From contig OZ024742.1 in the NCBI GenBank assembly GCA_964016885.1, positions 88,908,001 to 88,972,000 of the forward strand: DNA of 64,000 nucleotides, given 5' to 3'. The notes beneath the pieces were generated by a model. It was given only the letters and a program-made list of their open reading frames with translations, was not told the DNA's origin and searched no databases. This document shows positions 5,204 through 32,679 of this stretch, one piece after another. The translations under genes were made by a program, and so were the position numbers. Position 1 is the first letter of the stretch. Every line of letters begins with the position of its first letter. The DNA is from Eledone cirrhosa (taxonomy: Eukaryota).

Positions 5204-5402
5204 CTAGACCACCCGTGACCCGTTGGGTCATGTTCACTTTAAAATATATTTTTTAAAATCGTGTTCACTTAAAAATAATGTTTACATAATAAAAATATAC
5301 ACAGACATGTATATAATGTGAAATGAAACTGGAAGGCCTATATATATACGTGAGTGTATGTATATATATATATGTGTGTGTGTGTAAACATATACATATA
5401 TA

Positions 5403-5437
<35 letters not shown>

Positions 5438-5504
5438 GTGGATGTCTGTGATCTACATGCACTGGTCATAAACACACATATATATATATATATTCACACA
5501 CACT

Positions 5505-5567
<63 letters not shown>

Positions 5568-5892
5568 GCAACGGCACCACCAGCTCTCTTCCATTTTCAT
5601 TCTCTGTCTCCTTTCCCTCTTTCTGTCTCCCTTTCAATCTACTCTCTCACAACCACTATCTCTTTCTCTCTATCTTTTTCTCTCTTTGTATACTTTGTTT
5701 ATGAAGGCACCAGGAAAAACCTCATATGTTGGGAACACGCGGTCCGATTTACGCGAAATTTGTTTTGTTCCATTTGTATTCCCATTTCAGGCTCAACTTC
5801 CTTCAAAGTATTTTCCTAGTATGCGCCCTTTTGGCTGTATTACATTACAGATAAGCAAGCAAGCAATCAGTCACAGACTTTTAGTATTATAA
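5204..5892 (-). mobile_element. Non-autonomous Helitron-like element (HINE/DINE-like)
   Basis: The minus strand ends TGACCC-AAC-GGGTCA (hairpin 5216-5230) CGGGTGGT CTAG|T, a canonical Helitron 3' terminus. The minus-strand 5' part reads TATAATACTAAAAGTCTGTGACTGATT(GCTT)3. It contains internal (TA)n/(CA)n tracts and a CCGATTTACGCGAAATTT motif resembling DINE/HINE cores. Confidence 0.65.
5340..5570. repeat. (TA)n/(TG)n/(CA)n compound microsatellite
   Basis: Directly visible dinucleotide runs. Confidence 0.95.
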
Positions 5893-6171
5893 AAAGTGGA
5901 AATACCCTTTCTAATATATATATTGTCTGTACAGGTAATCAAAGTGTGTATAAATTTTTCCGGGACACCATATATATATATATATACCGGTGTCCCTAAA
6001 AATGTATACACCATTCTAATATATATATTGCCTGTACAGGTAATCAAAGTGTGTACATTTTTCGGGGAAACCATATATATATATACAGGGGTCCCTAAAA
6101 ATGTATACACCATTCTAATATATATATTACCTGTACAGGTAATCAAAGTGTGTATACATTTTTCGGGGACA

Positions 6172-6216
<45 letters not shown>

Positions 6217-6522
6217 GGGGTGCCTAAAAATGTATACAGCATTCTAGTATATATATTCTAATATATATTGCCTGTACAGGTAATCAAAGTGTGTATACAT
6301 TTTTCGGGGAAACCATATATATATATATACCTGGGTCCGGAAAAATGTATACACCATTCTAATATATATATTGGTTGTACAGGTAATCAAAGTGTGTATA
6401 CATTTTTGCGGAACACCATATATATATATATATATATATACCGGTGTCCCAAAAAATGTATACAACATTCTAATATATATATTGTACAGGTAATCAAAGT
6501 GTGTATACATTTTTCGGGGACA

Positions 6523-6555
<33 letters not shown>

Positions 6556-6742
6556 GGGGTCCCTAAAAACGTATACATTATTCTAATATATATATTGCCT
6601 GTACAGGTAATCAAAGTGTGTATACATTTTTCGGGGAAACCATATATATATATATACAGGGGTCCCTAAAAATGTATACACCATTCTAATATATATATTA
6701 CTGTACAGGTAATCAAAGTGTGTATACATTTTTCGCGGATAC

Positions 6743-6776
<34 letters not shown>

Positions 6777-7485
6777 CCGGGGTCCCTAAAAATGTATACA
6801 GCATTCTAATATATATATTCTAATATATATTGCTCGTACAGGTAATCAAAGTGTATATACATTTTTCGGCGAAACCATATATATATATATACCTGGGTCC
6901 TGAAAAATGTATACACCATTCTAATATATATATTGGTTGTACAGGTAATCAAAGTGTGATTACATTTTTCCGGGATACCATATATATATATAGCAGTGTC
7001 CCTAAAAATGTATACACCATTCTAATATATATATTGCCTGTACAGGTAATCAAAGCGTGTATACATTTTTCGGGGACACCATATATATATACCGGGGTCC
7101 CTAAAAATGTATACACCATTCTAATATATATATTGCCTGTACAGGTAATCAAAGTGTGTATACATTTTTCCGGGACACCATATATATATATACCGGTGTC
7201 CCTAAAAATGTATACAGCATTCTGATATATATATTGCCTATACAGGTAATCAAAGTGTGTATACATTTTTCCGGGACACCATATATATATATATATACCG
7301 GGGTCCCTAAAAACGTATACATCATTCTAATTTATATATTGCCTGTACAGGTAATCAAAGTGTGTATACATTTTTCGGGGAAACCATGTATATATATACA
7401 GGGGTCCCTAAAAATGTATACACCATTCTAATATATGTATTACCTGTACAGGTAATCAAAGTCTATATACATTTTTCGGGGACAC

Positions 7486-7519
<34 letters not shown>

Positions 7520-7805
7520 CCGGGGTCCCTAAAAATGTATACAGCATTCTAATATATATATTGGTTGTACAGGTAATCAAAGTGTGTTTACATTTTTCTA
7601 GGAAACCATATATATATACCGGGGTCCCTAAATATGTCTACACCATTCTAATATATATATTGCCTGTACAGGTAATCAATGTGTGTATACATTTTTAGGG
7701 GACACCATATATATATATACCTGGGTCCTGAAAAATGTATACACCATTCTAATATATATATTGCCTGTACAGGTAATTAAAGTGTGTATACATTTTTCCG
7801 GAACA

Positions 7806-7854
<49 letters not shown>

Positions 7855-8960
7855 CCGGTGTCCCTAAAAATGTATACAGTATTCTAATATATATATTGCC
7901 TGTACAGGTAATCAAAGTATGTAGACATTTTTCGGGGACACCATATATATATATATACCGGGTTGCCTAAAAATGTATACACCATTCTAATATATATATA
8001 TTGCCTATACAGGTAATCAAAGTGTGTATACATTTTTCGGGGACACCATATGTATATATACCTGGGTCCTGAAAAATGTATACACTATTCTAATATATAT
8101 ATTGGTTATACTCAAAGTCTGTATACATTTTTCCGGGACACCATATATATATATACCGGTGTCCCTAAAAATGTATACACCATTCTAATATATATATTGT
8201 CTGTACAGGTAATCAAAGTGTGTATACATTTTTCTGGGAAACCATATATATATACCGGGATCCCTAAAATGTATACACCATTCTAATATATATATTGCCT
8301 GTACAGGTAATCAAAGTGTGTATACATTTTTAGGGGACACCATATGTATATATACCTGGGTCCTGAAAAATGTATACACTATTCTAATATATATATTGGT
8401 TATACTCAAAGTGTGGATACATTTTTCCGGGACACCATATATATATATATGCCGATGTCCCTAAAAATGTATACACCATTCTAATATATATATTGCCTGT
8501 GCAGGTAATCAAAGTGTGTATACATTTTTCGGGGAAACCATATATATATATACCTGGGTCCTGAAAAATGTATACACCATTCTAATATATATATTGCCTG
8601 TACAGGTAATCAAAGTGTGTATACATTTTTCCGGGACACCATATATATATATATATACTGGTGTCCCTAAAAATGTATACACCATTATAATATATATATT
8701 GCCTGTACAGGTAATCAAATTGTGTGTACATTTTTCGGGGACACCATATATATATATATATATATATACCGGGGTCCCTAAAAATGTATACAGCATTCTA
8801 ATATATATATTCTAATATATATTGCCTGTACATGTAATCAAAGTGTGTATACATTTTTCGGGGAAACCATATATATATATATACCTGGGTCCGGAAAAAT
8901 GTATACACCATTCTAATATATATATTGGTAATCAAAGTGTGTATACATTTTTGCGGAACA

Positions 8961-8993
<33 letters not shown>

Positions 8994-9896
8994 GGTGTCC
9001 CAAAAAATGTATACAACATGCTAATATATATATTGCCTGTACAGGTAATCAAAGTGTGTATACATTTTTCGGGGAAACCATATATATATATACAGGGGTC
9101 CCTAAAAATGTTTACACCATTCTAATATATATATTGGTTGTACAGGTAATCAAAGTGTGATTACATTTTTCCGGGACACCATATATATATATACCAGTGT
9201 CCCTAAAAATGTATACAGCATTCTAATATATATGTGCCTGTACAGGTAATCAGAGTGTATATACAATTGTCGGGGAAACCATATAAATATATACCTTGGT
9301 CCTGAAAAATGTCTTCACCATTCTAATATATATCTGGGTTGTACAGGTAATCAAAGTGTGTTTACATTTTTCCGGGACACCATATATATATATACCGGTG
9401 TCCCTAAAAATGTATACACCATTCTAATACATATATTCCCTGTACAGGTAATCAAAGCGTGTATACATTTTTCGGGGACACCATATATATATACCGGTGT
9501 CCCTAAAAATGTATACACCATTCTAATAGATATATTGCCTGTACAGGTAATCAAAGTATGTATACATTTTTCGGGGACACCATATGTATATATACCTGGG
9601 TCCTGAAAAATGTATACACTATTCTAATATATATATATTGGTTATACTCAAAGTGTGTATACATTTTTCCGGGACACCATATATATATATATACCGGGGT
9701 CCCTAAAAATGTATACACCATTCTAATATATATATTGCCTTTACAGGTAATCAAAGTGTGTATACATTTTTCCGGAACACCATATATATATATATATATA
9801 TATGTATATACCGGTGTCCCTAAAAATGTATACAGTATTCTAATATAAATATTGCCTGTACAGGTAATCAAAGTATGTAGAGATTTTTCGGGGCCA

Positions 9897-9929
<33 letters not shown>

Positions 9930-10211
9930 GGGGTCCCTAAAAATGTATACACCATTCTAATATATATATTGCCTGTACAGGTAATCAAAGTGTGTATACA
10001 TTTTTCGGGGACACCATATGTATATATACCTGGGTCATGAAAAATTTATACACTATTCTAATATATATATATTGGTTATACTCAAAGTGTGTATACATTT
10101 TTCGGGTACACCATATATATATATACCGGGGTGCCTAAAAATGTATACACCATTCTAATATATATATTGCCTGTACAGGTAATCAAAGTGTGTATACATA
10201 TTTCCTGGACA

Positions 10212-10243
<32 letters not shown>

Positions 10244-10536
10244 CGGTGCCCCTAAAAATGTATACAGCATTCTAATATATATATTGCCTCTACAGGTTAT
10301 CAAAGTGTGTATACATTTTTCGGGGACACCATATATATATATTTATATACCGGGGTCCCTAAAAATGTATACACCATTCTAATATATATATTGCCTGTAC
10401 AGATAATCAAAGTGTGTATACATATTTCGGGGACACCATATATATATATAGCGGGGTCCCTAAAAATGTATACACCATTCTAATGTAAATATTGCCTGTA
10501 CAGGTAATCAAAGTGTGTATACATTTTTCGGGGACA

Positions 10537-10587
<51 letters not shown>

Positions 10588-10591
<4 letters not shown>

Positions 10592-11838
10592 CAGGTTTAG
10601 CAAATAATGAATAAGTTTGAAAATAAATTTTAAAAAATTGACTTTACTTACTATAGTTACCTTTACCGAATTGGTTTCGAATCTCAAAAATAAACGGAGA
10701 CCATACGGCCTTCGTTGCAAAGAAAGATTCTCGTCAGAAGTTTCTTTTCATTCGAAGAATATAAAATTCTTGAATTTAAATTACGAACTAGCGCTATCCA
10801 AAACTGTACCCGAGTTGACAGTGAATGAAGTGGAATCAATTTTTTCAAGGGCCGAAGTAAAGATAGAGGCAGAGGGAGGTTGGCCAAACGGCCAACATCA
10901 TCACTAGCAGCAGTCGGAACTACCAAATTTTTTTTCTCAACATAGAGGAGTATAGTAATAATAGGATGTGTGTTCCTACACGCACAAAGCGCTAAGTGAC
11001 ACATGTATTATCCAACCATATGCCAATGTGGTTCAAAGGCAGGTTAATAAATTAACGAGCCAGAACATATATAATCAGGTTTAGCAAATAATGAAAATGT
11101 TTCAAAATAAATTTTAAAAAATTGACTTTTCTTACTATAGTTACATTTACCGAATCGGTTTCGAATCTCAAAAATATACAGAGACCATACGGCCTTCGTT
11201 GCAAAGAAAGATTCTCGTCAGAAGTTTCTTTTCATTCGAAGAATATAAAATTCTTGAATTTAAATTACGAACTAGCGCTATCCAAAACTGTTCCCGAGAT
11301 GACAGTGAATGAAGTGGAATCAATTTTTTCAAGGGCCGAAGTAAAGATAGAGGCAGAGGGAGGTAGGTCAAACGGCCATCACTATCACTAGCAGCAGTGG
11401 GAACGACCACATTTTTTTTCTCAACATAGAGGAGTATAGTAATAATAGGATATTTGTTCCTACACGCACAAAGCCCTCAGGGACACATGTATTGTCCAAC
11501 CATATGCCAATGTGGTTCAATGGCAGATTAATAAATTAACGAGCCAGAACATATATAATGAGGTTTAGCAAATAATGAAAAAGTTTCAAAATAAATTTTA
11601 AAAAATTGACTTTACTTACTATATTTACCTTTACCGAATCGGTTTCGAATCTCAAAAATAAACGGAGACCATACGGCCTTCGTTGCAAAGAAAGATTCTC
11701 GTCAGAAGGTTCTTTTTATTGGATGAATATAAAATTCCTGAATTTAAATTACGAACTAGCGCTATCCAAAACTGTTCCCGAGATGAGAGTAAATGAAATG
11801 GAATCAATTTTTTCAAGTGCCGAAATAAAGATAGAGAT
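10588..11838. repeat. 484-bp unit block A1 (2 full + 1 truncated)
   Basis: Unit starts TAATCAGGTTTAGCAAATAATG. Equivalent positions at 10638, 11122 and 11606 give an exact 484-bp period. Confidence 0.95.
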
Positions 11839-11925
11839 ACCGAGGTCCCTAAAAATGTATACACCATTCTAATATATATATTGTCTGTACAGGTAATCAA
11901 AGTCTATATACATTTTTCGGGGACA

Positions 11926-11967
<42 letters not shown>

Positions 11968-13598
11968 GGGTCCGTAAAAATGTATACACCATTCTAATAT
12001 ATATATCGCCTGTACAGGTAATCAAAGTGTGTATACATTTTTCATGGACACCATATATATATATATATATATATATAACGGTGCCCCTAAATATGTATAC
12101 ACCATTCTAATATATATATTGCCTGTACGGGTAATCAAAGTGTGTATAAATTTTTCGGGGACACCATATATATATATATATATACCGGGGTCCCTAAAAA
12201 TGTATACACCATTCTAATATATATATTGCCTGTACAGATAATCAAAGTGTGTATACATATTTCGGGGACACCATATATATATATACCGGGTCCCTAAAAA
12301 TGTATACATCATTCCAATATATATATTGCCTGTACAGGTAATCAAAGTGTGTATACATTTTCGGGGAAAACATATATATATATACCTGGGTCATGAAAAA
12401 TGTATACACCATTCTAATATATACATTGCCTGTACAGGTAATCAAAGTGTGTATACATTTTTCGGGGAAACCATATATATATATACCTGGGTCCGGAAAA
12501 ATGTATACACCATTCTAATATATATATTGGTTGTACACGTAATCAAAGTGTGTATACATTTTTGCGGAACACCATATATATATATATATATATATATACC
12601 GGTGTCCCAAAAAATGTATACAACATGCTAATATATATATTGCCTGTACAGGTAATCATAGTGTGTATACATTTTTCGTAGACACCATATATATATATAT
12701 ATATATATACCGGGGTCCCTAAAAACGTATACATCACTCTAATATATATATTGCCTGTACAGGTAATCAAAGTGTGTATACATTTTTCGGGGAAACCATA
12801 TATATATATACAGGGGTCCCTAAAAATGTTTACACCATTCTAATATATATATTGGTTGTACAGGTAATCAAAGTGTGATTACATTTTTCCGGGACACTAT
12901 ATATATATATACCAGTGTCCCTAAAAATGTATACAGCATTCTAATATATATGTGCCTGTACAGGTAATCAGAGTGTATATACAATTGTCGGGGAAACCAT
13001 ATAAATATATACCTTGGTCCTGAAAAATGTCTTCACCATTCTAATATATATCTGGGTTGTACAGGTAATCAAAGTGTGTTTACATTTTTCCGGGACACCA
13101 TATATATATATACCGGTGTCCCTAAAAATGTATACACCATTCTAATACATATATTCCCTGTACAGGTAATCAAAGCGTGTATACATTTTTCGGGGACACC
13201 ATATATATATACCGGTGTCCCTAAAAATGTATACACCATTCTAATATATATATTGCCTGTACAGGTAATCAAAGTATGTATACATTTTTCGGGGACACCA
13301 TATGTATATATACCTAGGTCATGAAAAATGTATACACTATTCTAATATATATATATTGGTTATACTCAAAGTGTGTATACATTTTTCGGGTACACCATAT
13401 ATATATACCGGGGTGCCTAAAAATGTATACACCATTCTAATATATATATTGCCTGTACAGGTAATCAAAGTGTGTATACATTTTTCCTGGACACCATATA
13501 TATATATGTATACCGGTGCCCCTAAAAATGTATACAGCATTCTAATATATATATTGCCTGTACAGGTAATCAAAGTGTGTATACATTTTTCGGGGACA

Positions 13599-13633
<35 letters not shown>

Positions 13634-13637
<4 letters not shown>

Positions 13638-14578
13638 CAGGTTTAGCAAATAATGAAAAAGTTTCAAAATAAATTTCTCAACGTAGAGGAGTATAGTAAT
13701 AATAGGTTATGTGTTCCTACACGCACAAAGCGCTCAGGGACACATGTATTGTCCAACCATATGCCAATGTGGTTCAATGGCAGGTTGATAAATTAACAAG
13801 CCACAACATATATAATCAGGTTTAGCAAATAATGAAAAAGTCTCAAAATAAATTTTAAAAATTGACTTTACTTACTATAGTTACCTTTACCGAATCGGTT
13901 TCGAATCTCAAAAGTAAACGGAGACCATACGGCCTTCGTTGCAAAGAAAGATTCTCGTCAGAAGGTTCTTTTCATTCGAAGAATATAAAATTCTTGAATT
14001 TAAATTACGAACTAGCGCTATCCAAAACTGTTCCCGAGATGAGAGTAAATGAAGTGGAATCAATTTTTTAAAGGGCCGAAGTAAATATAGAGGCAGAGGG
14101 AGGTAGGTCAAACGGCCATCACCACTACTAGCAGCAGTCGGAACGACCAAATTTTTTTTCTCAACATAGAGGAGTATAGTAATAATAGGATATGTGTTCC
14201 TACACGCACAAAGCGCTCAGGGACACATGTGTTGTCCAATCATATGCCAATGTGTTTCAATGGCAGGTTAATAAATTAACGAGCCAGAACATATATAATC
14301 AGGTTTAGCAAATAATGAAAAAGTTTCAAAATAAATTTTAAAAAATTGACTTTACTTGCTTTATTTACCTTTACTGAATCGGTTTCGAATCTCAAAAATA
14401 AACGGAGACCATACGGCCTTCGTTGCAAAGAAAGATACTCGTCAGAAAGTTATTTTTATTGGAAGAATATAAAATTCTTGAAATTAAATTACGAACTAGC
14501 GCTTCCAAAACTGTTCCCGAGATGAGAGTAAATGAAGTGGAATCAATTTTTTCAAGTGCCGAAGTAAAGATAGAGATA
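13634..14578. repeat. 484-bp unit block B1 (internally deleted + full + truncated)
   Basis: The first copy jumps from AAATAAATTT to CTCAACGTAGAGG. Full copy at ~13812, truncated copy at ~14296. Confidence 0.93.
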
Positions 14579-14664
14579 CCGAGGTCCTTAAAAATGTATA
14601 CACCATTCTAATATATATATTGCCTGTACAGATAATCAAAGTGTGTATACATTATTTGGGGAAA

Positions 14665-14717
<53 letters not shown>

Positions 14718-14801
14718 GAGGTCCCTCAAAATGTATGCACCATTCTAGTATATATATTATCTGTACAGGTAATCAAAGTGTATATACATTTTTCGGGGAC
14801 A

Positions 14802-14836
<35 letters not shown>

Positions 14837-14920
14837 GGGGTCCGTAAAAATGTATACACGATTCTAATATATATATTGCCTGTACAGATACTCAAAGTAT
14901 GTATACATTTTTCGGGGACA

Positions 14921-14971
<51 letters not shown>

Positions 14972-15677
14972 GGGGTCCCTAAAAATGTATACACCATTCT
15001 AATATATATATTGCCTGTACAGGTAATCAAAGTATGTATACATTTTTCGGAGAAACCATATGTATATATACCTGGGTCCTGAAAAATGTATACACCATTC
15101 TAATATATATATTGGTTATACAGGTAATCAAAGTGTGTATACATTATTCGGGGAAACCATATATATATAAAGGGATCCCTAAAAATGTATACACCATTCT
15201 AATATATATATTGCCTGTACAGGTAATCAAAGTGTGTATACATATTTCCTGGACACCATATATATATATATATATATATAACGGTGCCCCTAAAAATGTA
15301 TACAGCATTCTAATATATATATTGCCTCTACAGGTTAACAAAGTGTGTATACATTTTTCGGGGACACCATATATATATATTTATATACCGGGGTCCCTAA
15401 AAATGTATACACCATTCTAATATATATATTGCCTGTACAGATAATCAAAGTGTGTATACATATTTCGGGGACACCATATATATATATAGCGGGGTCCCTA
15501 AAAATGTATACACCATTCTAATGTAAATATTGCCTGTACAGGTAATCAAAGTGTGTATACATTTTTCCTGGACACCATATATATATATATACCGGTGCCC
15601 CAAAAAATGTATGCAGCATTCTAATATATATATTGCCTGTGCAGGTAATCAAAGTGTGTATACATTTTTCGGGGACA

Positions 15678-15712
<35 letters not shown>

Positions 15713-15716
<4 letters not shown>

Positions 15717-16963
15717 CAGGTTTATCAAATAATGAATAAGTTTGAAAATAAATTTTAAAAAATTGACTTTACTTACTATAGTTACCTTTACCGAATTGGT
15801 TTCGAATCTCAAAAATAAACGGAGACCATACGGCCTTCGTTGCAAAGAAAGATTCTCGTCAGAAGTTTCTTTTCATTCGAAGAATATAAAATTCTTGAAT
15901 TTAAATTACGAACTAGCGCTATCCAAAACTGTTCCCGAGATGACAGTGAATGAAGTGGAATCAATTTTTTCAAGGGCCGACGTAAAGATAGAGGCAGAGG
16001 GAGGTTGGCCAAACGGCCAACATCATCACTAGCAGCAGTCGGAACGACCAAATTTTTTTTCTCAACATAGAGGAGTATAGTAATAATAGGATGTGTGTTC
16101 CTACACGCACAAAGCGCTAAGTGACACATGTATTATCCAACCATATGCCAATGTGGTTCAAAGGCAGGTTAATAAATTAACGAGCCAGAACATATATAAT
16201 CAGGTTTAGCAAATAATGAAAATGTTTCAAAATAAATTTTAAAAAATTGACTTTTCTTACTATAGTTACTTTTACCGAATCGGTTTCGAATCTCAAAAAT
16301 ATACAGAGACCATACGGCCTTCGTTGCAAAGAAAGATTCTCGTCAGAAGTTTCTTTTCATTCGAAGAATATAAAATTCTTGAATTTAAATTACGAACTAG
16401 CGCTATCCAAAACTGTTCCCGAGATGACAGTGAATGAAGTGGAATCAATTTTTTCAAGGGCCGAAGTAAAGATAGAGGCAGAGGGAGGTAGGTCAAACGG
16501 CCATCACTATCACTAGCAGCAGTGGTAACGACCACATTTTTTTTCTCAACATAGAGGAGTATAGTAATAATAGGATATTTGTTCCTACACGCACAAAGCC
16601 CTCAGGGACACATGTATTGTCCAACCATATGCCAAAGTGGTTCAATGGCAGGTTAATAAATTAACGAGCCAGAACATATATAATCAGGTTTAGCAAATAA
16701 TGAAAAAGTTTCAAAATAAATTTTAAAAAATTGACTTTACTTACTATATTTACCTTTACCGAATCGGTTTCGAATCTCAAAAATAAACGGAGACCATACG
16801 GCCTTCGTTGCAAAGAAAGATTCTCGTCAGAAGGTTCTTTTTATTGGAAGAAAATAAAATTCCTGAATTTAAATTACGAACTAGCGCTATCCAAAACTGT
16901 TCCCGAGATGAGAGTAAATGAAATGGAATCAATTTTTTCAAGTGCCGAAATAAAGATAGAGAT
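15713..16963. repeat. 484-bp unit block A2
   Basis: Near-identical to A1, offset 5125 bp. Confidence 0.95.
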
Positions 16964-17050
16964 ACCGAGGTCCCTAAAAATGTATACACCATTCTAATAT
17001 ATATATTGTCTGTACAGGTAATCAAAGTCTATATACATTTTTCGGGGACA

Positions 17051-17094
<44 letters not shown>

Positions 17095-18618
17095 GGGTCC
17101 GTAAAAATGTATACACCATTCTAATATATATATCGCCTGTACAGGTAATCAAAGTGTGTATACATTTTTCATGGACACCATATATATATATATATATATA
17201 TATAACGGTGCCCCTAAATATGTATACACCATTCTAATATATATATTGCCTGTACGGGTAATCAAAGTGTGTATAAATTTTTCGGGGACACCATATATAT
17301 ATATATATATACCGGGGTCCCTAAAAATGTATACACCATTCTAATATATATATTGCCTGTACAGATAATCAAAGTGTGTATACATATTTCGGGGACACCA
17401 TATATATATATACCGGGTCCCTAAAAATGTATACATCATTCTAATATATATATTGCCTGTACAGGTAATCAAAGTGTGTATACATTTTCGGGGAAAACAT
17501 ATATATATATACCTGGGTCATGAAAAATGTATACACCATTCTAATATATACATTGCCTGTACAGGTAATCAAAGTGTGTATACATTTTTCGGGGAAACCA
17601 TATATATATATACCTGGGTCCGGAAAAATGTATACACCATTCTAATATATATATTGGTTGTACACGTATTCAAAGTGTGTATACATTTTTGCGGAACACC
17701 ATATATATATATATATATATATATACCGGTGTCCCAAAAAATGTATACAACATGCTAATATATATATTGCCTGTACAGGTAATCATAGTGTGTATACATT
17801 TTTCGTGGACACCATATATATATATATATATATACCGGGGTCCCTAAAAACGTATACATCACTCTAATATATATATTGCCTGTACAGGTAATCAAAGTGT
17901 GTATACATTTTTCGGAGAAACCATATATATATATACAGGGGTCCCTAAAAATGTTTACACCATTCTAATATATATATTGGTTGTACAGGTAATTAAAGTG
18001 TGATTAGATTTTTCCGGGACACTATATATATATACCAGTGTCCCTAAAAATGTATACAGCATTCTAATATATATGTGCCTGTACAGGTAATCAGAGTGTA
18101 TATACAATTGTCGGGGAAACCATATAAATATATACCTTGGTCCTGAAAAATGTCTTCACCATTCTAATATATATCTGGGTTGTACAGGTAATCAAAGTGT
18201 GTTTACATTTTTCCGGGACACCATATATATATATACCGGTGTCCCTAAAAATGTATACACCATTCTAATACATATATTCCCTGTACAGGTAATCAAAGCG
18301 TGTATACATTTTTCGGGGACACCATATATATATACCGGTGTCCCTAAAAATGTATACACCATTCTAATATATATATTGCCTGTACAGGTAATCAAAGTAT
18401 GTATACATTTTTCGGGGACACCATATGTATATATACCTGGGTCCTGAAAAATGTATACACTATTCTAATATATATATTGGTTATACTCAAAGTGTGTATA
18501 CATTTTTCCGGGACACCATATATATATATATACCGGGGTCCCTAAAAAGGTATACACCATTCTAATATATATATTGCCTGTACAGGTAATCAAAGTGTGT
18601 ATACATTTTTCTGGAACA

Positions 18619-18659
<41 letters not shown>

Positions 18660-19194: not shown

Positions 19195-19198
<4 letters not shown>

Positions 19199-20139: not shown

Positions 20140-20225
20140 CCGAGGTCCTTAAAAATGTATACACCATTCTAATATATATATTGCCTGTACAGATAATCAA
20201 AGTGTGTATACATTATTTGTGGAAA

Positions 20226-20278
<53 letters not shown>

Positions 20279-20475
20279 GAGGTCCCTCAAAATGTATGCA
20301 CCATTCTAGTATATATATTATCTGTACAGGTAATCAAAGTGTATATACATTTTTCGGGGACACCATATATATATATATATATATATATACCGGGGTCCGT
20401 AAAAATGTATACACGATTCTAATATATATATTGCCTGTACAGATACTCAAAGCATGTATACATTTTTCGGGGACA

Positions 20476-20532
<57 letters not shown>

Positions 20533-21238
20533 GGGGTCCCTAAAAATGTATACACCATTCTAATATATATATTGCCTGTACAGGTAATCAAAGTATGTAT
20601 ACATTTTTCGGACAAACCATATGTATATATACCTGGGTCCTGAAAAATGTATACACCATTCTAATATATATATTGGTTATACAGGTAATCAAAGTGTGTA
20701 TACATTATTCGGGGAAACCATATATATATAAAGGGATCCCTAAAAATGTATACACCATTCTAATATATATATTGCCTGTACAGGTAATCAAAGTGTGTAT
20801 ACATATTTCCTGGACACCATATATATATATATATATATATAACGGTGCCCCTAAAAATGTATACAGCATTCTAATATATATATTGCCTCTACAGGTTAAC
20901 AAAGTGTGTATACATTTTTCGGGGACACCATATATATATATTTATATACCGGGGTCCCTAAAAATGTATACACCATTCTAATATATATATTGCCTGTACA
21001 GATAATCAAAGTGTGTATACATATTTCGGGGACACCATATATATATATAGCGGGGTCCCTAAAAATGTATACACCATTCTAATGTAAATATTGCCTGTAC
21101 AGGTAATCAAAGTGTGTATACATTTTTCCTGGACACCATATATATATATATACCGGTGCCCCAAAAAATGTATGCAGCATTCTAATATATATATTGCCTG
21201 TGCAGGTAATCAAAGTGTGTATACATTTTTCGGGGACA

Positions 21239-21269
<31 letters not shown>

Positions 21270-21273
<4 letters not shown>

Positions 21274-22520
21274 CAGGTTTAGCAAATAATGAATAAGTTT
21301 GAAAATAAATTTTAAAAAATTGACTTTACTTACTATAGTTACCTTTACCGAATTGGTTTCGAATCTCAAAAATAAACGGAGACCATACGGCCTTCGTTGC
21401 AAAGAAAGATTCTCGTCAGAAGTTTCTTTTCATTCGAAGAATATAAAATTATTGAATTTAAATTACGAACTAGCGCTATCCAAAACTGTTCCCGAGATGA
21501 CAATGAATGAAGTGGAATCAATTTTTCCAAGGGCCGACGTAAAGATAGAGGCAGAGGGAGGTTGGCCAAACGGCCAACATCATCACTAGCAGCAGTCGGA
21601 ACGACCAAATTTTTTTTCTCAACATAGAGGAGTATAGTAATAATAGGATGTGTGTTCCTACACGCACAAAGCGCTAAGTGACACATGTATTATCCAACCA
21701 TATGCCAATGTGGTTCAAAGGCAGGTTAATAAATTAACGAGCCAGAACATATATAATCAGGTTTAGCAAATAATGAAAATGTTTCAAAATAAATTTTAAA
21801 AAATTGACTTTTCTTACTATAGTTACTTTTACCGAATCGGTTTCGAATCTCAAAAATATACAGAGACCATACGGCCTTCGTTGCAAAGAAAGATTCTCGT
21901 CAGAAGTTTCTTTTCATTCGAAGAATATAAAATTCTTGAATTTAAATTACGAACTAGCGCTATCCAAAACTGTTCCCGAGATGACAGTGAATGAAGTGGA
22001 ATCAATTTTTTCAAGGGCCGAAGTAAAGATAGAGGCAGAGGGAGGTAGGTCAAACGGCCATCACTATCACTAGCAACAGTGGGAACGACCACATTTTTTT
22101 TCTCAACATAGAGGAGTATAGTAATAATAGGATATTTGTTCCTACACGCACAAAGCCCTCAGGGACACATGTATTGTCCAACCATATGCCAAAGTGGTTC
22201 AATGGCAGGTTAATAAATTAACGAGCCAGAACATATATAATCAGGTTTAGCTAATAATGAAAAAGTTTCAAAATAAATTTTAAAAAATTGACTTTACTTA
22301 CTATATTTACCTTTACCGAATCGGTTTCGAATCTCAAAAATAAACGGAGACCATACGGCCTTCGTTGCAAAGAAAGATTCTCGTCAGAAGGTTCTTTTTA
22401 TTGGAAGAATATAAAATTCCTGAATTTAAATTACGAACTAGCGCTATCCAAAACTGTTCCCGAGATGAGAGTAAATGAAATGGAATCAATTTTTTCAAGT
22501 GCCGAAATAAAGATAGAGAT
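21270..22520. repeat. 484-bp unit block A3
   Basis: Near-identical to A2, offset 5557 bp. Confidence 0.95.
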
Positions 22521-22607
22521 ACCGAGGTCCCTAAAAATGTATACACCATTCTAATATATATATTGCCTGTACGGGTAATCAAAGTGTGTATAAATTTTTC
22601 GGGGACA

Positions 22608-22642
<35 letters not shown>

Positions 22643-22827
22643 GGGGTCCCTAAAAATGTATACACCATTCTAATATATATATTGCCTGTACAGATAATCA
22701 AAGTGTGTATACATATTTCGGGGACACCATATATATATATACCGGGTCCCTAAAAATGTATACACCATTCTAATATATATATTGCCTGTACAGGTAATCA
22801 AAGTGTGTATACATTTTCGGGGAAAAC

Positions 22828-22860
<33 letters not shown>

Positions 22861-23573
22861 TATAACGGGGTCCCTCAAAATGTATACACCATTCTAATAT
22901 ATATATTGCCTGTACAGATAATCAAAGTGTGTATACATTTTTCCGGGACACCATATATATATACCGGGGTCCCTAAAAATGTATACACCATTCTAATATA
23001 TATATTGCCTGTACAGGTAATCAAAGTGTGTATACATTTTTCGGGGACACCATATATATATATATATATATATACCGGGGTCCCTAAAAATGTATACACC
23101 ATTCTAATATATATATTGCCTGTACAGATAATCAAAGTGTGTATACATATTTCGGGGACACCATATATATATATAACGGGGTCCCTAAAAATGTATACAC
23201 CATTTCTAATATATACATATTGCCTGTACAGGTAATCAAAGTGTGTATACATTTTTCGGTGAAATCATATATATATATACCTGGGTCCTGAAAAATGTAT
23301 ACACCATTCTAATATATACATTGCCTGTACAGGTAATCAAAGTGTGTATACATTTTTCGGGGACACCATATATATATACCGGGGTCCCTAAAAATGTATA
23401 CACCATTCTAATATATATATTGCCTGTACAGGTAATCAAAGTGTGTATACATTTTTCCTGGACACCATATATATATATATATATACCGGTGCCCCAAAAA
23501 ATGCATGCAGCATTCTAATATATATATTGCCTGTACAGGTAATAAAAGTGTGTATACATTTTTCGGGGACACC

Positions 23574-23622
<49 letters not shown>

Positions 23623-23626
<4 letters not shown>

Positions 23627-24389
23627 CAGGTTTAGCAAATAATGAAAAAGTTTCAATATAAATTTTAAAAAATTGACTTTACTTACTATAGTTACCTTTA
23701 GCGAATCGGTTTCGAATCTCAAAATTAAACGGAGACCATACGGCCTTCGTTGCAAAGAAAGATTCTCGTCAGAATTTTCTTTTCATTCGAAGAATATAAA
23801 ATTCTTGAATTTAAATTACGAACTAGCGCTATCCAAAACTGTTCCCGAGATGAGAGTAAATGAAGTGGAATCAATTTTTTAAAGGGCCGAAGTAAATATA
23901 GAGGCAGAGGGAGGTAGGTCAAACGGCCATCTCCACTACTAGCAGCAGTCGGAACGACCAAATTTTTTTTCTCAACATAGAGGAGTATAGTAATAATAGG
24001 ATATGTGTTCCTACACGCACAAAGCGCTCAGGGACACATGTGTTGTCCAATCATATGCCAATGTGTTTCAATGGCAGGTTAATAAATTAACGAGCCAGAA
24101 CATATATAATCAGGTTTAGCAAATAATGAAAAAGTTTCAAAATAAATTTTAAAAAATTGACTTTACTTGCTTTATTTACCTTTACTGAATCGGTTTCGAA
24201 TCTCAAAAATAAACGGAGACCATACGGCCTTCGTTGCAAAGAAAGATACTCGTCAGAAAGTTATTTTTATTGGAAGAATATAAAATTCTTGAAATTAAAT
24301 TACGAACTAGCGCTTCCAAAACTGTTCCCGAGATGAGAGTAAATGAAGTGGAATCAATTTTTTCAAGTGCCGAAGTAAAGATAGAGATA
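23623..24389. repeat. 484-bp unit block B3 (full + truncated)
   Basis: B-type variants (TCA>TAA, CTCCACTACTAG) but without the deleted copy. Confidence 0.92.
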
Positions 24390-24475
24390 CCGAGGTCCTT
24401 AAAAATGTATACACCATTCTAATATATATATTGCCTGTACAGATAATCAAAGTGTGTATACATTATTTGGGGAAA

Positions 24476-24520
<45 letters not shown>

Positions 24521-24717
24521 GAGGTCCCTCAAAATGTATGCACCATTCTAGTATATATATTATCTGTACAGGTAATCAAAGTGTATATACATTTTTCGGG
24601 GACACCATATATATATATATATATATATATACCGGGGTCCGTAAAAATGTATACACGATTCTAATATATATATTGCCTGTACAGATACTCAAAGTATGTA
24701 TACATTTTTCGGGGACA

Positions 24718-24764
<47 letters not shown>

Positions 24765-25472
24765 GGAGTCCCTAAAAATGTATACACCATTCTAATATAT
24801 ATATTGCCTGTACAGGTAATCAAAGTATGTATACATTTTTCGGAGAAACCATATGTATATATACCTGGGTCCTGAAAAATGTATACACCATTCTAATATA
24901 TATATTGGTTATACAGGTAATCAAAGTGTGTATACATTATTCGGGGAAACCATATATATATAAAGGGATCCCTAAAAATGTATACACCATTCTAATATAT
25001 ATATTGCCTGTACAGGTAATCAAAGTGTGTATACATATTTCCTGGACACCATATATATATATATATATATATAACGGTGCCCCTAAAAATGTATACAGCA
25101 TTCTAATATATATATTGCCTCTACAGGTTAACAAAGTGTGTATACATTTTTCGGGGACACCATATATATATATTTATATACCGGGGTCCCTAAAAATGTA
25201 TACACCATTCTAATATATATATTGCCTGTACAGATAATCAAAGTGTGTATACATATTTCGGGGACACCATATATATATATATAGCGGGGTCCCTAAAAAT
25301 GTATACACCATTCTAATGTAAATATTGCCTGTACAGGTAATCAAAGTGTGTATACATTTTTCCTGGACACCATATATATATATATACCGGTGCCCCAAAA
25401 AATGTATGCAGCATTCTAATATATATATTGCCTGTGCAGGTAATCAAAGTGTGTATACATTTTTCGGGGACA

Positions 25473-25503
<31 letters not shown>

Positions 25504-25509
<6 letters not shown>

Positions 25510-26755
25510 GGTTTAGCAAATAATGAATAAGTTTGAAATTAAATTTTAAAAAATTGACTTTACTTACTATAGTTACCTTTACCGAATTGGTTTCGAATCT
25601 CAAAAATAAACGGAGACCATACGGCCTTCGTTGCAAAGAAAGATTCTCGTCAGAAGTTTCTTTTCATTCGAAGAATATAAAATTATTGAATTTAAATTAC
25701 GAACTAGCGCTATCCAAAACTGTTCCCGAGATGACAATGAATGAAGTGGAATCAATTTTTTCAAGGGCCGACGTAAAGATAGAGGCAGAGGGAGGTTGGC
25801 CAAACGGCCAACATCATCACTAGCAGCAGTCGGAACGACCAAATTTTTTTTCTCAACATAGAGGAGTATAGTAATAATAGGATGTGTGTTCCTACACGCA
25901 CAAAGCGCTAAGTGACACATGTATTATCCAACCATATGCCAATGTGGTTCAAAGGCAGGTTAATAAATTAACGAGCCAGAACATATATAATCAGGTTTAG
26001 CAAATAATGAAAATGTTTCAAAATAAATTTTAAAAAATTGACTTTTCTTACTATAGTTACTTTTACCGAATCGGTTTCGAATCTCAAAAATATACAGAGA
26101 CCATACGGCCTTCGTTGCAAAGAAAGATTCTCGTCAGAAGTTTCTTTTCATTCGAAGAATATAAAATTCTTGAATTTAAATTACGAACTAGCGCTATCCA
26201 AAACTGTTCCCGAGATGACAGTGAATGAAGTGGAATCAATTTTTTCAAGGGCCGAAGTAAAGATAGAGGCAGAGGGAGGTAGGTCAAACGGCCATCACTA
26301 TCACTAGCAGCAGTGGGAACGACCACATTTTTTTTCTCAACATAGAAGAGTATAGTAAAAATAGGATATTTGTTCCTACACGCACAAAGCCCTCAGGGAC
26401 ACATGTATTGTCCAACCATATGCCAAAGTAGTTCAATGGCAGGTTAATAAATTAACGAGCCAGAACATATATAATCAGGTTTAGCAAATAATGAAAAAGT
26501 TTCAAAATAAATTTTAAAAAATTGACTTTACTTACTATATTTACCTTTACCGAATCGTTTTCGAATCTCAAAAATAAACGGAGACCATACGGCCTTCGTT
26601 GCAAAGAAAGATTCTCGTCAGAAGGTTCTTTTTATTGGAAGAATATAAAATTCCTGAATTTAAATTACGAACTAGCGCTATCCAAAACTGTTCCCGAGAT
26701 GAGAGTAAATGAAATGGAATCAATTTTTTCAAGTGCCGAAATAAAGATAGAGATA
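25504..26755. repeat. 484-bp unit block A4
   Basis: Near-identical to A3, offset 4234 bp. Confidence 0.95.
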
Positions 26756-26841
26756 CCGAGGTCCCTAAAAATGTATACACCATTCTAATATATATATTGC
26801 CTGTACGGGTAATCAAAGTGTGTATAAATTTTTCGGGGACA

Positions 26842-26876
<35 letters not shown>

Positions 26877-27162
26877 GGGGTCCCTAAAAATGTATACACC
26901 ATTCTAATATATATATTGCCTGTACAGATAATCAAAGTGTGTATACATATTTCGGGGACACCATATATATATATACCGGGTCCCTAAAAATGTATACACC
27001 ATTCTAATATATATATTGCCTGTACACGTAATCAAAGTGTGTATACATTTTCGGGGAAAACATATATATATATACCTGGGTCATGAAAAATGTATACACC
27101 ATTCTAATATATACATTGCCTGTACAGGTAATCAAAGTGTGTATACATTTTTCGGGGACACC

Positions 27163-27231
<69 letters not shown>

Positions 27232-27235
<4 letters not shown>

Positions 27236-27998
27236 CAGGTTTAGCAAATAATGAAAAAGTTTCAAAATAAATTTTAAAAAATTGACTTTACTTACTATAG
27301 TTACCTTTAGCGAATCGGTTTCGAATCTCAAAATTAAACGGAGACCATACGGCCTTCGTTGCAAAGAAAGATTCTCGTCAGAATTTTCTTTTCATTCCAA
27401 GAATATAAAATTCTTGAATTTAAATTACGAACTAGAGCTTTCCAAAACTGTTCCCGAGATGACAGTAAATGAAGTGGAATCAATTTTTTAAAGGGCCGAA
27501 GTAAATATAGAGGCAGAGGGAGGTAGGTCAAACGGCCATTCCCATCACTAGCAGCAGTCGGAACGACCAAATTTTTTTTCTCAACATAGAGGAGTATAGT
27601 AATAATAGGATGTGTGTTCCTACACGCACAAAGCGCTAAGGGACACATGTCTTTCCAACCATATGCCAATGTGGTTCAATGGCAGGTTAATAAATTAACG
27701 AGCCAGAACATATATAATCAGGTTTAGCAAATAATGAAAATGTTTCAAAATAAATTTTAAAATATTGACATTTCTTACTATAGTTACCTTTACCGAATCG
27801 GTTTCGAATCTGAAAAATAAACGGAGACCATACGGCCTTCGTTGCAAAGAAAGATTCTCGTCAGAAGGTTCTTTTCATTCGAAGAATATAAAATTCTTGA
27901 ATTTAAATTACGAACTAGCGCTATCCAAAACTGTTCCCGAGATGAGAGTAAATGAAGTGGAATCAATTTTTTCAAGTGCCGAAGTAAAGATAGAGATA
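27232..27998. repeat. 484-bp unit block C (full + truncated)
   Basis: Equivalent positions at 27282 and 27765. Confidence 0.92.
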
Positions 27999-28197
27999 CC
28001 GAGGTCCCTAAAAATGTATACACCATTCTAATATATATATTGCCTGTACAGATAATCAAAGTGTGTATACATTTTTCGGGGAAACCATATATATATATAT
28101 ATATATATATACCGGGGTCCCTCAAAATGTATGCACCATTCTAATATGTATATTGTCTGTACAGGTAATCAAAGTGTATATACATTTTTCGGGGACA

Positions 28198-28264
<67 letters not shown>

Positions 28265-28654
28265 GGGGTCCGTAAAAATGTATACACGATTCTAATATAT
28301 ACATTGCCTGTACTGGTAATCAAAGTGTGTATACATTTTTCCGGGACACCATATATATATTTACCGGTGTCCCTAAAAATGTATACACCATTCTAATATA
28401 TATATTGCCTGTACAGGTAATCAAAGTGTGTATACATTTTTCGGGGAAACCATATATATATATACCGGGGTCCCTAAAAATGTATACCCCATTCTAATAT
28501 ATATATCGCCTGTACAGGTAATCAAAGTGTGTATACATTTTTCATGGACACCGTGTATATATATATATAACGGTGCCCCTAAAAATGTATACAGCATTCT
28601 AATATATATATTGCCTCTACAGGTAATCAAAGTGTGTATACATTTTTCGGCACA

Positions 28655-28709
<55 letters not shown>

Positions 28710-29018
28710 CCGGGGTCCCTAAAAATGTATACACCATTCTAATATATATATTGCCTGTACAGATAATCAAAGTGTGTATACATATTTCGGGGACACCATA
28801 TATATATATATACCGGTGCTCCAAAAAATGTATACACCATTCTAATATATATATTGCCTGTACAGGTAATCAAAGTGTGTATACATTTTTCCTGGACACC
28901 ATATATATATATATACCGGTGCCCCAAAAAATGTATACAGCATTCTAATATATATATTGCCTGTACAGGTAATCAAAGTGTGTATACATTTTTCGGGGAC
29001 ACCAAATATATATATATA

Positions 29019-29302
29019 TAATCAGGTTTAGCAAATAATGAAACAGTTTGAAAATAAATTTTAAAAAATTGACTTTCCTTACTATAGTTACCTTTACCGA
29101 ATCGGTTTCGAATCTCAAAAATAAACGGAGACCATACGGCCTTCGTTGCAAAGAAAGATTCTCGTCAGGAGTTTCTTTTCATTCGAAGAATATAAAATTC
29201 TTGAATTTAAATTACGAACTAGCGCTATCCAAAACTGTTCCCGAGATAACAGTAAATGAAGTGGAATCAATTTTTTCAAGGGCCGAAATAAAGATAGAGA
29301 TA
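29019..29302. repeat. 484-bp unit, truncated copy only (block D)
   Basis: Same start and same GATAGAGA|TACCGAGGTCCC junction as the other truncated copies. Confidence 0.92.
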
Positions 29303-29388
29303 CCGAGGTCCCTAAAAATGTATACACAATTCTAATATATATATTGCCTGTACAGATAATCAAAGTGTGTATACATTTTTCGGGGAAA

Positions 29389-29422
<34 letters not shown>

Positions 29423-29620
29423 CGGGGTCCCTCAAAATGTATGCACCTTTCTAATATATATATTGTCTGTACAGGTAATCAAAGTGTATATATAATTTTC
29501 GGGGACACCATATATATATATATATATATATATACCGGGGTCCCTCAAAATGTATGCACCATTCTAATATATATATTGTCTGTACAGGTAATCAAAGTGT
29601 ATATACAATTTTCGGGGACA

Positions 29621-29653
<33 letters not shown>

Positions 29654-29739
29654 GGTGTCCCTCAAAATGTATGCACCATTCTAATATATATATTGTCTGT
29701 ACAGGTAATCAAAGTGTATATACATTTTTCGGGGACACC

Positions 29740-29776
<37 letters not shown>

Positions 29777-30942
29777 CCGGGTTCCGTAAAACTGTATACA
29801 CCATTCTAATATATATATTGCCTGTACAGGTAATCAAAGTGTGTATACATTTTTCGGGGAAACCATATATATATATACCTGGGTCCTGAAAAATGTATAC
29901 ACCAAAGTGTGTTTACATTTTCCGGGAACACCATATATATATATATACCGGTGTCCCTAAAAATGTATACACCATTCTAATATATATATTTCCTGTACAG
30001 GTAATCAAAGTGTGTATACATTTTTCGGGGACACCATATATATATAAAGGGATCCCTAAAAATGTATACACCATTCTAATATATATATTGCCTGTACAGG
30101 TAATCAAAGTGTTATACATTTTTCGGGGATACCATATATATATATACCTGAGTCCCTAAAAATGTATACACCATTCTAATATATATATTACCTGTACAGG
30201 TAATCAAAGTGTGTATACATTTTTCGGAGAAATCATATATATATATACATGGGTCCTGAAAAATGTATACACCATTCTAATATATATATTGGTTATACAG
30301 GTAATCAAAGTGTGTATACATTTTTCCGTGACAACATATATATATATATACAGGTGTCCCTAAAAATGTATACACCATTCTAATATATATATTGCCTGTA
30401 CAGATAATCAAAGTGTGTATACATTTTTCAGGGAAACCATATATATATATATACCTGGGTCCTGAAAAATGTATACGCTATTCTAATATATATATATTGG
30501 TTATACAGGTAATCAAAGTGTGAATACATTTTTCCGGGACACCATATATATATATATATATACCGGTGTCCCTAAAAATATATACACCATTCTAATATAT
30601 ATATTGCCTGTACAGGAAATCAAAGTGTGTATACATTTTTCGGGGAAACCATATATATATATACCTGGGTCCTGAAAAATGTATACACCATTCTAATATA
30701 TATATATTGGTTGTACAGGTAATCAAAGTGTGTTTACATTTTTCGGGAACACCATATATATATATATACCGGTGTCCCTAAAAATGTATACACCATTCTA
30801 ATATATATATTGCCTGTACACGTAATCAAAGTATGTATACATTTTCAGGGACACCATATATATATATGCCGGGGTCCCTCATTCTGATATATATATTGGT
30901 TGTACAGGTAATCAAAGTGTATATTCATTTTTCGGGGACACC

Positions 30943-30976
<34 letters not shown>

Positions 30977-31063
30977 CGGTGTCCCTAAAAATGTATACAC
31001 CATTCTAATATATATATTGCCTGTACAGGTAATCAAAGTGTATATTCATTTTTCGGGGACACC

Positions 31064-31094
<31 letters not shown>

Positions 31095-32322
31095 CCGGTG
31101 TCCCTAAAAATGTATACACCATTCTAATATATATATTGCCTGTACAGATAATCAAAGTGTGTATACATTTTCAGGGAAACCATATATATATATACCTGGG
31201 TCCTGAAAAATGTATACGCCATTCTAATATATATATATTGGTTATACAGGTAATCAAAGTGTGTATACATTTTTCCGGGACACCATATATATATATATAT
31301 ACGGGTGTCCCTAAAAATGTATACACCATTCTAATATATATATTGCCTGTACAGGAAATCAAAGTGTGTATACATTTTTCGGGGAAACCATATATATATA
31401 TACCTGGTTCCTGAAAAATGTATACACCATTCTAATATATATATTGGTTGTACAGGTAATCAAAGTGTGTTTACATTTTTCGGGAACACCATATATATAT
31501 ATATACCGGTGTCCCTAAAAATGTATACACCATTCTGATATATATATTGCCTGTATAGATAATCAAAGTGTGTATACATTTTTCGAGGAAACTATATATA
31601 TATATATATATATATACGGGTGTCCCTAAAAATGTATACACCATTCTAATATATATATTGCCTGTACAGGTAATCAAAGTGTTTATACATTTTTCGGGCA
31701 CACCATATATATATATACCGGAGTCCCTAAAAATGTATACACCATTTTAATATATATATTGCCTGTACAGGTACTCAAAGTGTGTATACATTTTTCGGGG
31801 AAACCATATATATATATATATATATACCGGGGTCCCTGAAAATGTATACATCATTCTAATATATATATTGCCTGTACGCGTAATCAAAATGTGTATACAT
31901 TTTTCGCGGACACTATTTATACTGGGGTCCTTAAAAATGTATACACCATTCTAATATATATATTGCCTGTACAGGTAATCAAAGTGCGTATACATTTTTC
32001 GAGAACACCATATATATATACCGGGGTCTCTTAAAATGTATACACCATTTTAATATATATATTGCCTGTACAGGTAATCAAAGTGTATATACATTTTTCT
32101 GGGACACCATATATATATATATATACCGGTGTCCCTAAAAATGTATACACCATTCTAATATATATATTGCCTGTACAGGTAATCAAAGTGTGTATACATT
32201 TTTGCGGGACACCATATATATATATATATATATACCGGTGTCCCTAAAAATGTATACACCATTCTAATATATATATTGCCTGTACAAGTAATCAAAGTGT
32301 GTTTACATTTTTCGGGGACACC

Positions 32323-32369
<47 letters not shown>

Positions 32370-32604
32370 GGGGTCCCTAAAAATGTATACACCATTCTAA
32401 TATATATATTGCCTGTACAGGTAATCAAACTGTGTATACATTTTTCGGGGACACTATATATATATAATAATACCGGGGTCCCTAAAAATGTATACACCAT
32501 CCTAAAAAATAATGCATTTATAGGCAATCAAAGTAGATATACATTTTGGAGGGGACAACCTGTATATACACAAATATGAACATATATATAGAGAGAGAAA
32601 GTGT

Positions 32605-32679
32605 GTGCAAGCAGGCAAGCAAGCAAACAAACAATCAAGATCAGAGTTTTAGTAGTATATATATATATATTTATATATA
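32605..32679 (-). mobile_element. Second Helitron-like 5' terminus
   Basis: The minus strand reads (TA)n-TACTACTAAAACTCTGATCTTGATTGTTTGTTTGCTTGCTTGCC, homologous to the end at 5850-5892. The canonical 5' TC is not visible and is replaced by (TA)n. Confidence 0.5.

Follow-up and report, generated by a model that had tools for sequence, protein, structure and literature searches.

Tandem repeats housed in rolling-circle transposons can grow into satellite DNA, a principle already described in oyster and Drosophila and not new here. In Drosophila, the central repeats of a rolling-circle element have reportedly expanded into the satellite DINE-TR1. The Cg_HINE and other Helitron satellites of Crassostrea gigas are tandem arrays inside non-autonomous rolling-circle elements, with a tetranucleotide microsatellite on the 5' side and a palindrome on the 3' side, and some of these elements hold two repeat types (PMC7492417, PMC8268682); the central repeats of DINE-1 in Drosophila likewise grow into a satellite (PMC4067079). 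We analysed a 64-kb window of the Eledone cirrhosa assembly (contig OZ024742.1, positions 88,908,001 to 88,972,000) using public read runs, protein and pattern searches and published papers, and focused on a block at positions 5204-32679 of this window that combines a satellite array with Helitron-like ends. On balance, we consider it somewhat probable that this block is a non-autonomous Helitron chimera that brought a smaller array of elements that resemble MITEs (miniature inverted-repeat transposable elements) into one old Tx1-type long interspersed nuclear element (LINE), and that the array then expanded in place.

The block resembles these systems in layout and departs from them in scale and in its repeat unit. 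The C. gigas elements carry subterminal inverted repeats (subTIRs) of 11-12 bp and arrays averaging up to 5 monomers, the longest element-associated array having 89 (supplements may list longer ones; PMC7492417, PMC8268682), whereas this block has no subTIRs, ends in CTAG and contains ~165 monomers whose unit bears terminal inverted repeats (TIRs) of its own, along with a second repeat that totals 8.7 kb and higher-order blocks. The 13-bp subTIRs and the TT target of DINE-1 (PMC4067079) are both absent here. Likenesses also extend to canonical Helitrons and multi-5' arrays, in which a hairpin stands ~11 nt before CTAG, insertion occurs before T without a target-site duplication (TSD), several 5' ends share one 3' end and flanking DNA is captured by read-through (PMC4778049, PMC12628747); unlike in these, the block lacks the 5'-TC, and what is repeated is cargo between two 5' motifs rather than the Helitron 5' part. 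Small inverted-repeat elements have also given rise to tandem arrays, as with Angel of zebrafish, Xstir and miDNA4 (PMC12628747, PMC9659126), yet the Xstir and miDNA4 arrays derive from the interior of a MITE, whereas here each unit comprises nearly all of the element together with an (AT)n spacer of variable length, and the array is set within Helitron-like ends. In the plant SaTar arrays of Mutator-like elements, small elements are aligned in a microsatellite, but these are unrelated elements added singly, in contrast to the one family, one orientation and block duplications seen here (PMC5907723).

Flanking the block are two pieces of Tx1-type 3' untranslated region (UTR) that are likely, judging by their sequence, to be halves of one LINE. 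To the left, a decayed copy carrying stops, frameshifts and an internal deletion of ~128 codons near 3916 (tblastn showed in-frame stops, with reference residues 334-461 missing) breaks off in its 3' UTR at 5203, the last letters reading ...ATTGCTTA. A self-BLAST of the window revealed four younger copies of this element, three near full length at 36358-54090 and one 3' piece at 58582, whose 3' ends are mutually 92-95% identical. Against them, the old copy is 82-84% identical at the end of its second open reading frame (ORF2) and 78-80% identical in the proximal UTR. To the right of the block, the tail at 32729-32830 is 80.4, 82.5 and 83.5% identical to three of the young copies (97 nt) and 83.0% to the fourth (47 nt); at 80-83%, compared with 94-97% for the next tail, this piece is as old as the broken copy. 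The two pieces lie on the same strand and do not overlap. LINEs normally retain their 3' end, a consequence of target-primed reverse transcription, and this, together with the shared divergence of both pieces, supports a single split copy.

Reads and contigs were compared with the right end of the block, outside the low-complexity stretch that contains the outer motif and the junction, in 4 of 11 listed public runs (X1, X6, X9 and X10 are among the runs cited), those with small word shares being set aside. Positions 32718-32825 proved to belong to a multicopy family, with deep read or contig cover in all 4 runs, 5 near-fixed differences in 108 nt and cover that carries the family part-way into a T-rich linker.

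The ORF2 of the young copies encodes Pfam domains PF03372 (APE), PF00078 (reverse transcriptase, RT) and, C-terminally, PF13966 (zf-RVT), with ORF1 upstream, and the protein is 33% identical to the Xenopus TX1 149-kDa protein. We keep to 'Tx1-type' as the safe label, one founded on domains and similarity rather than on placement in an RT tree. Among these LINEs, the three at 36358-54090 stand in a row, the second and third each starting right after the preceding (ATT)n tail. The elements at 36358 and 48358, compared with that at 42240, combine two types of 5' half and ORF1 (~64% identity over 520 nt) with one ORF2 (93-95%), which suggests a swap of 5' modules.

The block itself terminates on the minus strand, exactly at the UTR break, as a Helitron would: TGACCC-AAC-GGGTCA, 8 nt, CTAG (5207-5204) and then T. 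Canonical Helitrons carry a palindrome of 16-20 nt ~11 bp before the 3' end (PMC4067079); the hairpin here, with its 6-bp stem, is slightly short (15 nt perfect, 19 nt with one mismatch) and ends 12 nt from the terminus, and CTAG conforms to the canonical CTRR. A hairpin accompanies only 6 of the 515 CTRR-T sites in the window; by our own arithmetic, such a pattern would turn up no more than 20 bp from a particular break with a probability of ~0.003. The folding energy of the hairpin alone is ordinary (z -1.66; 14 of 200 shuffles equally good). Two 5' motifs share the strand of this 3' end. The inner, TATAATACTAAAA followed by (GCTT)3, lies at 5891-5855; it and the outer motif at 32659 agree at 16 of 18 nt (TAATACTAAAA versus TACTACTAAAA), each is followed by (GCTT/GTTT)n, and the pair is the top non-self match among 25,590 windows, scoring 36 against 26 when the tetranucleotide run is included. 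We found no TSD, the best direct repeat at the junctions being TTTTT. T follows CTAG, and the 5' 'A' of an A|T insertion site is one of several possible parses of the TA run in which the outer limit falls. Because the 3' features are those of canonical Helitrons and the 5'-TC is absent, we file the ends as Helitron-like rather than as members of that group.

A Helentron/HINE/DINE type, Helentrons having been named beside Helitrons in the initial annotation, was not supported. Although the tetranucleotide microsatellite on the left, after both 5' motifs, and the palindrome on the right are as in Helentrons, HINEs and DINE-1, the TT target and T-rich ends of those elements are absent (CTAG is followed by TA), and subTIRs of 11-13 bp are at chance level: the best exact matches, 6 nt for the inner element and 8 nt for the outer, were reached by 58-246 of 300 shuffles. 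Other claims of that annotation fared better. The Tx1 copy does break off at 5203 and one copy split by the block is supported; the minus-strand hairpin with CTAG, the absence of a TSD and the recurrence of the outer 5' motif near 5850-5892 are all borne out, the last by a thin margin without the tetranucleotide run; and two 5' ends on one 3' end is a Helitron outcome described in PMC12628747. The claim that the distal UTR resumes from 32680 stands for divergence, strand and absence of overlap, and falls short on exact collinearity, the joined UTR being ~45 nt longer in the linker than the young copies. Its '27.5-kb satellite array' fits the whole block with both Helitron-like ends, the array proper measuring 26.7 kb (about 5902-32563). 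Overall, its split Tx1, Helitron 3' end and 5'/3' layout held up, while a Helentron-type element did not and the MITE-like nature of the monomer was overlooked. As a separate observation, the inner 5' motif lies inside a short inverted repeat at 5877-5897 on the minus strand, with a stem of 6 bp and a loop of 9 nt, in a region whose folding is not above that of shuffles.

The cargo is an array of 164 monomers by left-arm match, plus partial ones, or about 165 copies. The majority unit is 88 bp, the copies have a mean identity of 93% and the (AT)n spacers vary in length. The arms are inverted repeats at 21 of 24 columns, as in short non-coding elements with TIRs, and one monomer folds at z -4.86 with none of 200 shuffles as good. 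By eye, the arms match the end of MITE_113, a Tc1-like MITE tabulated in PMC4678618, at 21 of 30 positions, and 158 of 164 left arms stand directly after TA, although within (TA)n a TA TSD is indistinguishable. The monomer is likely a tiny DNA transposon and resembles a Tc1-like MITE. Its orientation is uniform (core 11-mer, 158 plus and 3 minus), which argues for tandem amplification rather than serial insertion; together with the block structure described below, it led us to reject serial independent insertion of MITEs. At the left edge, the inner Helitron-like element starts within a monomer, at the A|T of the monomer in one parse by eye. At the right edge, simple decay of the divergent last monomer was rejected, since the variant half is covered by contigs or reads in 3 of 4 runs.

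The monomer was probably born elsewhere than at this locus. In run X6, it occurs at 32501 in 34 contigs; (TA)n loose ends are present in 26 of these, and the contigs show flanks of (TA)n only. Its summed depth exceeds 60,000 compared with 7-40 for the listed contigs; summed depth is not copy number, yet so high a value points to a family that extends far beyond this locus. Run X1, which bears a different organism label, has the monomer in one contig, and abundance in runs under two labels makes birth at this locus unlikely. In the restriction-site-associated (RAD) runs X9 and X10, monomer reads were scarce, peaking at 28 and 9 per bin, respectively; libraries of this type are unsuited to copy number. 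Exact-pattern scans with the monomer core found no match in metagenome, prokaryote or viral contigs, where animal repeats are not expected, and among 150 of 224 listed Rfam matches in positions 1-14700 of the window there were only sub-threshold microRNA matches, in (AT)n and monomer hairpins.

Superimposed on the monomers is a higher-order structure. Adjacent monomers differ on average at 11.2 of 88 sites, whereas multi-monomer blocks are far more alike, as in higher-order satellites. After compressing the (AT)n runs, we compared 7 pairs picked as likely duplicates, and in all 7 the multi-kb blocks were 99.2-99.8% identical, which implies that much of the array's length is young duplication; at least 41% of the compressed bases (10,136 of 24,681) are exact later copies of earlier 120-mers. 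The nine blocks of the 484-bp repeat have their limits in common, each beginning within (AT)n at one and the same point of the unit and stopping at unit position 285, and these nine shared junctions indicate one founding capture that was later duplicated. Its unit has overlapping open frames of 98 aa (plus) and 102-107 aa (minus) at 10584-11836 despite 33% GC. None of 5 frames rose above the Pfam cut-off (one at E 0.092), the plus frame had no homolog among longer proteins or in Atlas, and the minus frame had none among 1.84 billion representatives; we thus rejected a captured gene and treat the unit as non-coding.

The initial annotation left open whether the array was carried in at its present size or incubated on site. 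Carriage at full size is doubtful, given the exact later copies. Incubation in the sense of birth here is unlikely, given the monomer in many X6 contigs and in X1 and given variants that are mostly shared sub-lineages: the 78 non-redundant monomers lie on average 6.4% from the majority, and 310 of 434 variant calls are common to at least 3. This diversity is about as deep as the departure of the Tx1 tail from its family, so that a multi-monomer seed was probably imported.

We propose the following course for the Helitron chimera. A Tc1-like 88-bp MITE in (TA)n would have formed tandem arrays elsewhere in the genome, as its TIRs and abundance suggest, and one such array would have lain between a Helitron 5' end and, on its far side, a further small Helitron. 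Rolling-circle copying from the outer 5' end would then have run through the array and stopped at the hairpin-CTAG of the inner element, and the product would have inserted at AT in the Tx1 UTR without a TSD, a route suggested by the termini. Read-through and alternative terminators have been shown for Helraiser (PMC4778049), and arrays with several Helitron 5' ends and one 3' end are known (Xiong et al., summarised in PMC12628747). A fragment of the 484-bp repeat would have entered a (TA)n spacer once, and unequal exchange or slippage would have duplicated the multi-kb blocks, probably later than the insertion. Growth after insertion is likely, judging from termini that look worn next to duplications of very young age, and from oyster, in which elements seem to transpose less as their internal repeats lengthen (PMC8268682).

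Several observations weigh against this account. Only 7 of 164 left arms start with TACAGG, whereas TACCGG starts 79, and the outer CAG is missing from most right arms. The joined UTR is ~45 nt longer than the young copies in the window, within the T-rich linker that holds the break, which puts the exact join beyond what the window alone can show, and no Tx1 copy of the same subfamily across the join was seen in the window or in the right-end reads. Without its repeat run, the 5' motif is barely above background (score 26 versus 25). The canonical 5'-TC, which may have been lost through decay, is missing from both elements, the outer starting in a TA run and the inner in TT or TA depending on the parse. 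Further copies of either Helitron-like end were absent from prokaryotic, viral and metagenomic collections, where animal repeats are not expected. The public runs share just 20-39% of the words of positions 4300-5340, so they may come from a relative. Finally, the present data leave the insertion undated relative to the young duplications.

The strongest competitor, though still an unlikely one, is stepwise nesting, in which the 0.7-kb inner Helitron alone split the UTR and its TA-rich 5' end was afterwards joined by a MITE array and another Helitron-like piece, which lost their far ends by deletion and grew. The inner element does own both a 5' motif and a 3' end, the window is full of nested elements abutting microsatellites, and both Helitrons (PMC4778049) and TA-targeting elements (PMC5907723) prefer AT-rich sites. 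Such a history nevertheless requires insertions precisely at the inner 5' junction and the loss of the outer 3' end and part of a monomer arm, when a chimera yields the same layout in one step, and monomers all in one orientation are not independent insertions. Another reading, which seems to us quite improbable, is that the UTR pieces come from Tx1 fragments with no relation to each other, or that the neighbourhood is the product of a rearrangement or of a join made across the satellite during assembly. Here the join that does not align across the T-rich linker, the great number of Tx1 3' ends, the several linker types in read loose ends and the lack of an array-spanning read or contig among the right-end reads count in its favour; it must nonetheless posit that a LINE lost its tail exactly at the hairpin-CTAG and that an equally old fragment on the same strand lay at the matching place. 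The window, moreover, contains no N, and between duplicated blocks there are differences at 0.2-0.8% of sites as well as in the length of (AT)n.

We likewise regard as very doubtful a move of the whole 27.5 kb, higher-order blocks included, in one rolling-circle event. Monomer variation about as deep as the departure of the Tx1 tail (6.4% and 5 of 108 nt, respectively) indicates that some diversity was probably imported, and Helitrons do read through flanking DNA (PMC4778049). Against this stand termini that look worn, with no 5'-TC and an interrupted TA run, next to blocks that are 99.2-99.8% identical, and the oyster data, where the longest Helitron-associated array has 89 monomers and mobility seems to drop with length (PMC8268682). 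Its wider form, in which a Helitron chimera moved a ready-made, MITE-built higher-order satellite of 27 kb in one step and the same vehicle spread the satellite genome-wide, is improbable. If true, one DNA transposon class would carry the tandem array of another, at a size beyond the oyster cases.

What sets the block apart from known cases is the size of its array, a monomer that spans nearly all of a MITE and is spaced by (AT)n, and the combination of a second repeat with higher-order blocks; in the open-access literature, outside which most subscription papers lie, we found no report of Helitron ends enclosing a higher-order array of whole MITEs and (TA)n. The locus is informative in that the split LINE sets an upper limit on how old the insertion can be and fixes its empty site, and the history of the array can be read in the sub-lineages of its MITE-like monomer, the single capture of a second repeat and block duplications of recent date. 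Comparison of alleles and sister species could reveal directly whether large satellites move at full size or grow from a small landed seed.

Table 1. Features in and around the block, in window coordinates.
Feature	Position	Strand	Basis
Old 5'-truncated Tx1-type LINE, part of ORF2 and proximal 3' UTR	3336..5203	+	78-84% identity to young copies
Helitron-type 3' end: TGACCC/GGGTCA hairpin, 8 nt, CTAG, then host T	5204..5230	-	Sequence reading, pattern scan
Inner non-autonomous Helitron-like element, ~0.7 kb, largely microsatellite	5204..5903	-	Boundary inferred; start about 5891-5903
Array of 88-bp MITE-like monomers, ~24-bp TIRs, (AT)n between	5902..32563	+	Left-arm match, alignment, fold
Left edge monomer, outer left arm missing where the inner element begins	5904..5971	+	Alignment to monomer majority
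Young higher-order duplications, e.g. 14579-16964 = 20140-22521 = 24390-26755 (99.5%); 11840-13312 = 16965-18435 (99.55%)	9093..26755	+	
484-bp second repeat, nine blocks, 8,731 bp in total	10584..29299	+	Shared junctions
Right edge monomer, distinct variant (76% to majority), right arm TA-CAGG from outside	32473..32563	+	Alignment; right half covered in X6, X9, X10
Outer 5' segment, Helitron-like: a TA run and TATACTACTAAAA, followed by (GTTT/GCTT)n and low-complexity DNA	32565..32679	-	Motif match
Distal 3' UTR, AATAAA and (ATT)n tail, likely belonging to the 3336 copy	32680..32850	+	80-83% identity to young copies
Separate young 85-bp Tx1 3' fragment directly after the old tail	32851..32936	+	94-97% identity to young copies (32851-32915)

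Elsewhere in the window, three diverged RT elements lie on the minus strand at 1-2750, 32940-36350 and 54090-57600, the second and third abutting Tx1 (ATT)n tails; microsatellite targeting in the manner of R4/Dong-like elements is a possible lead. An open frame of 912 aa at 33077-35815 encodes RVT_1, and visual inspection suggests a C-terminal zinc/restriction-like endonuclease motif; its best homologs are 55-65% identical. A dispersed repeat of 80-100 bp, which from its look we take to be like a short interspersed nuclear element, recurs at 2384-2461, 38165-38255, 58487-58577 and 63081-63181 (89-99% alike), and one copy interrupts ORF1 of the LINE at 36-42 kb. Two copies of a 112-bp direct repeat, 96% identical, lie 320 bp apart at 60459-60570 and 60779-60890. 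Just after a (CT)n(AT)n stretch, a 135-bp near-perfect palindrome (92%) at 61118-61252 is possibly a foldback element or a MITE.

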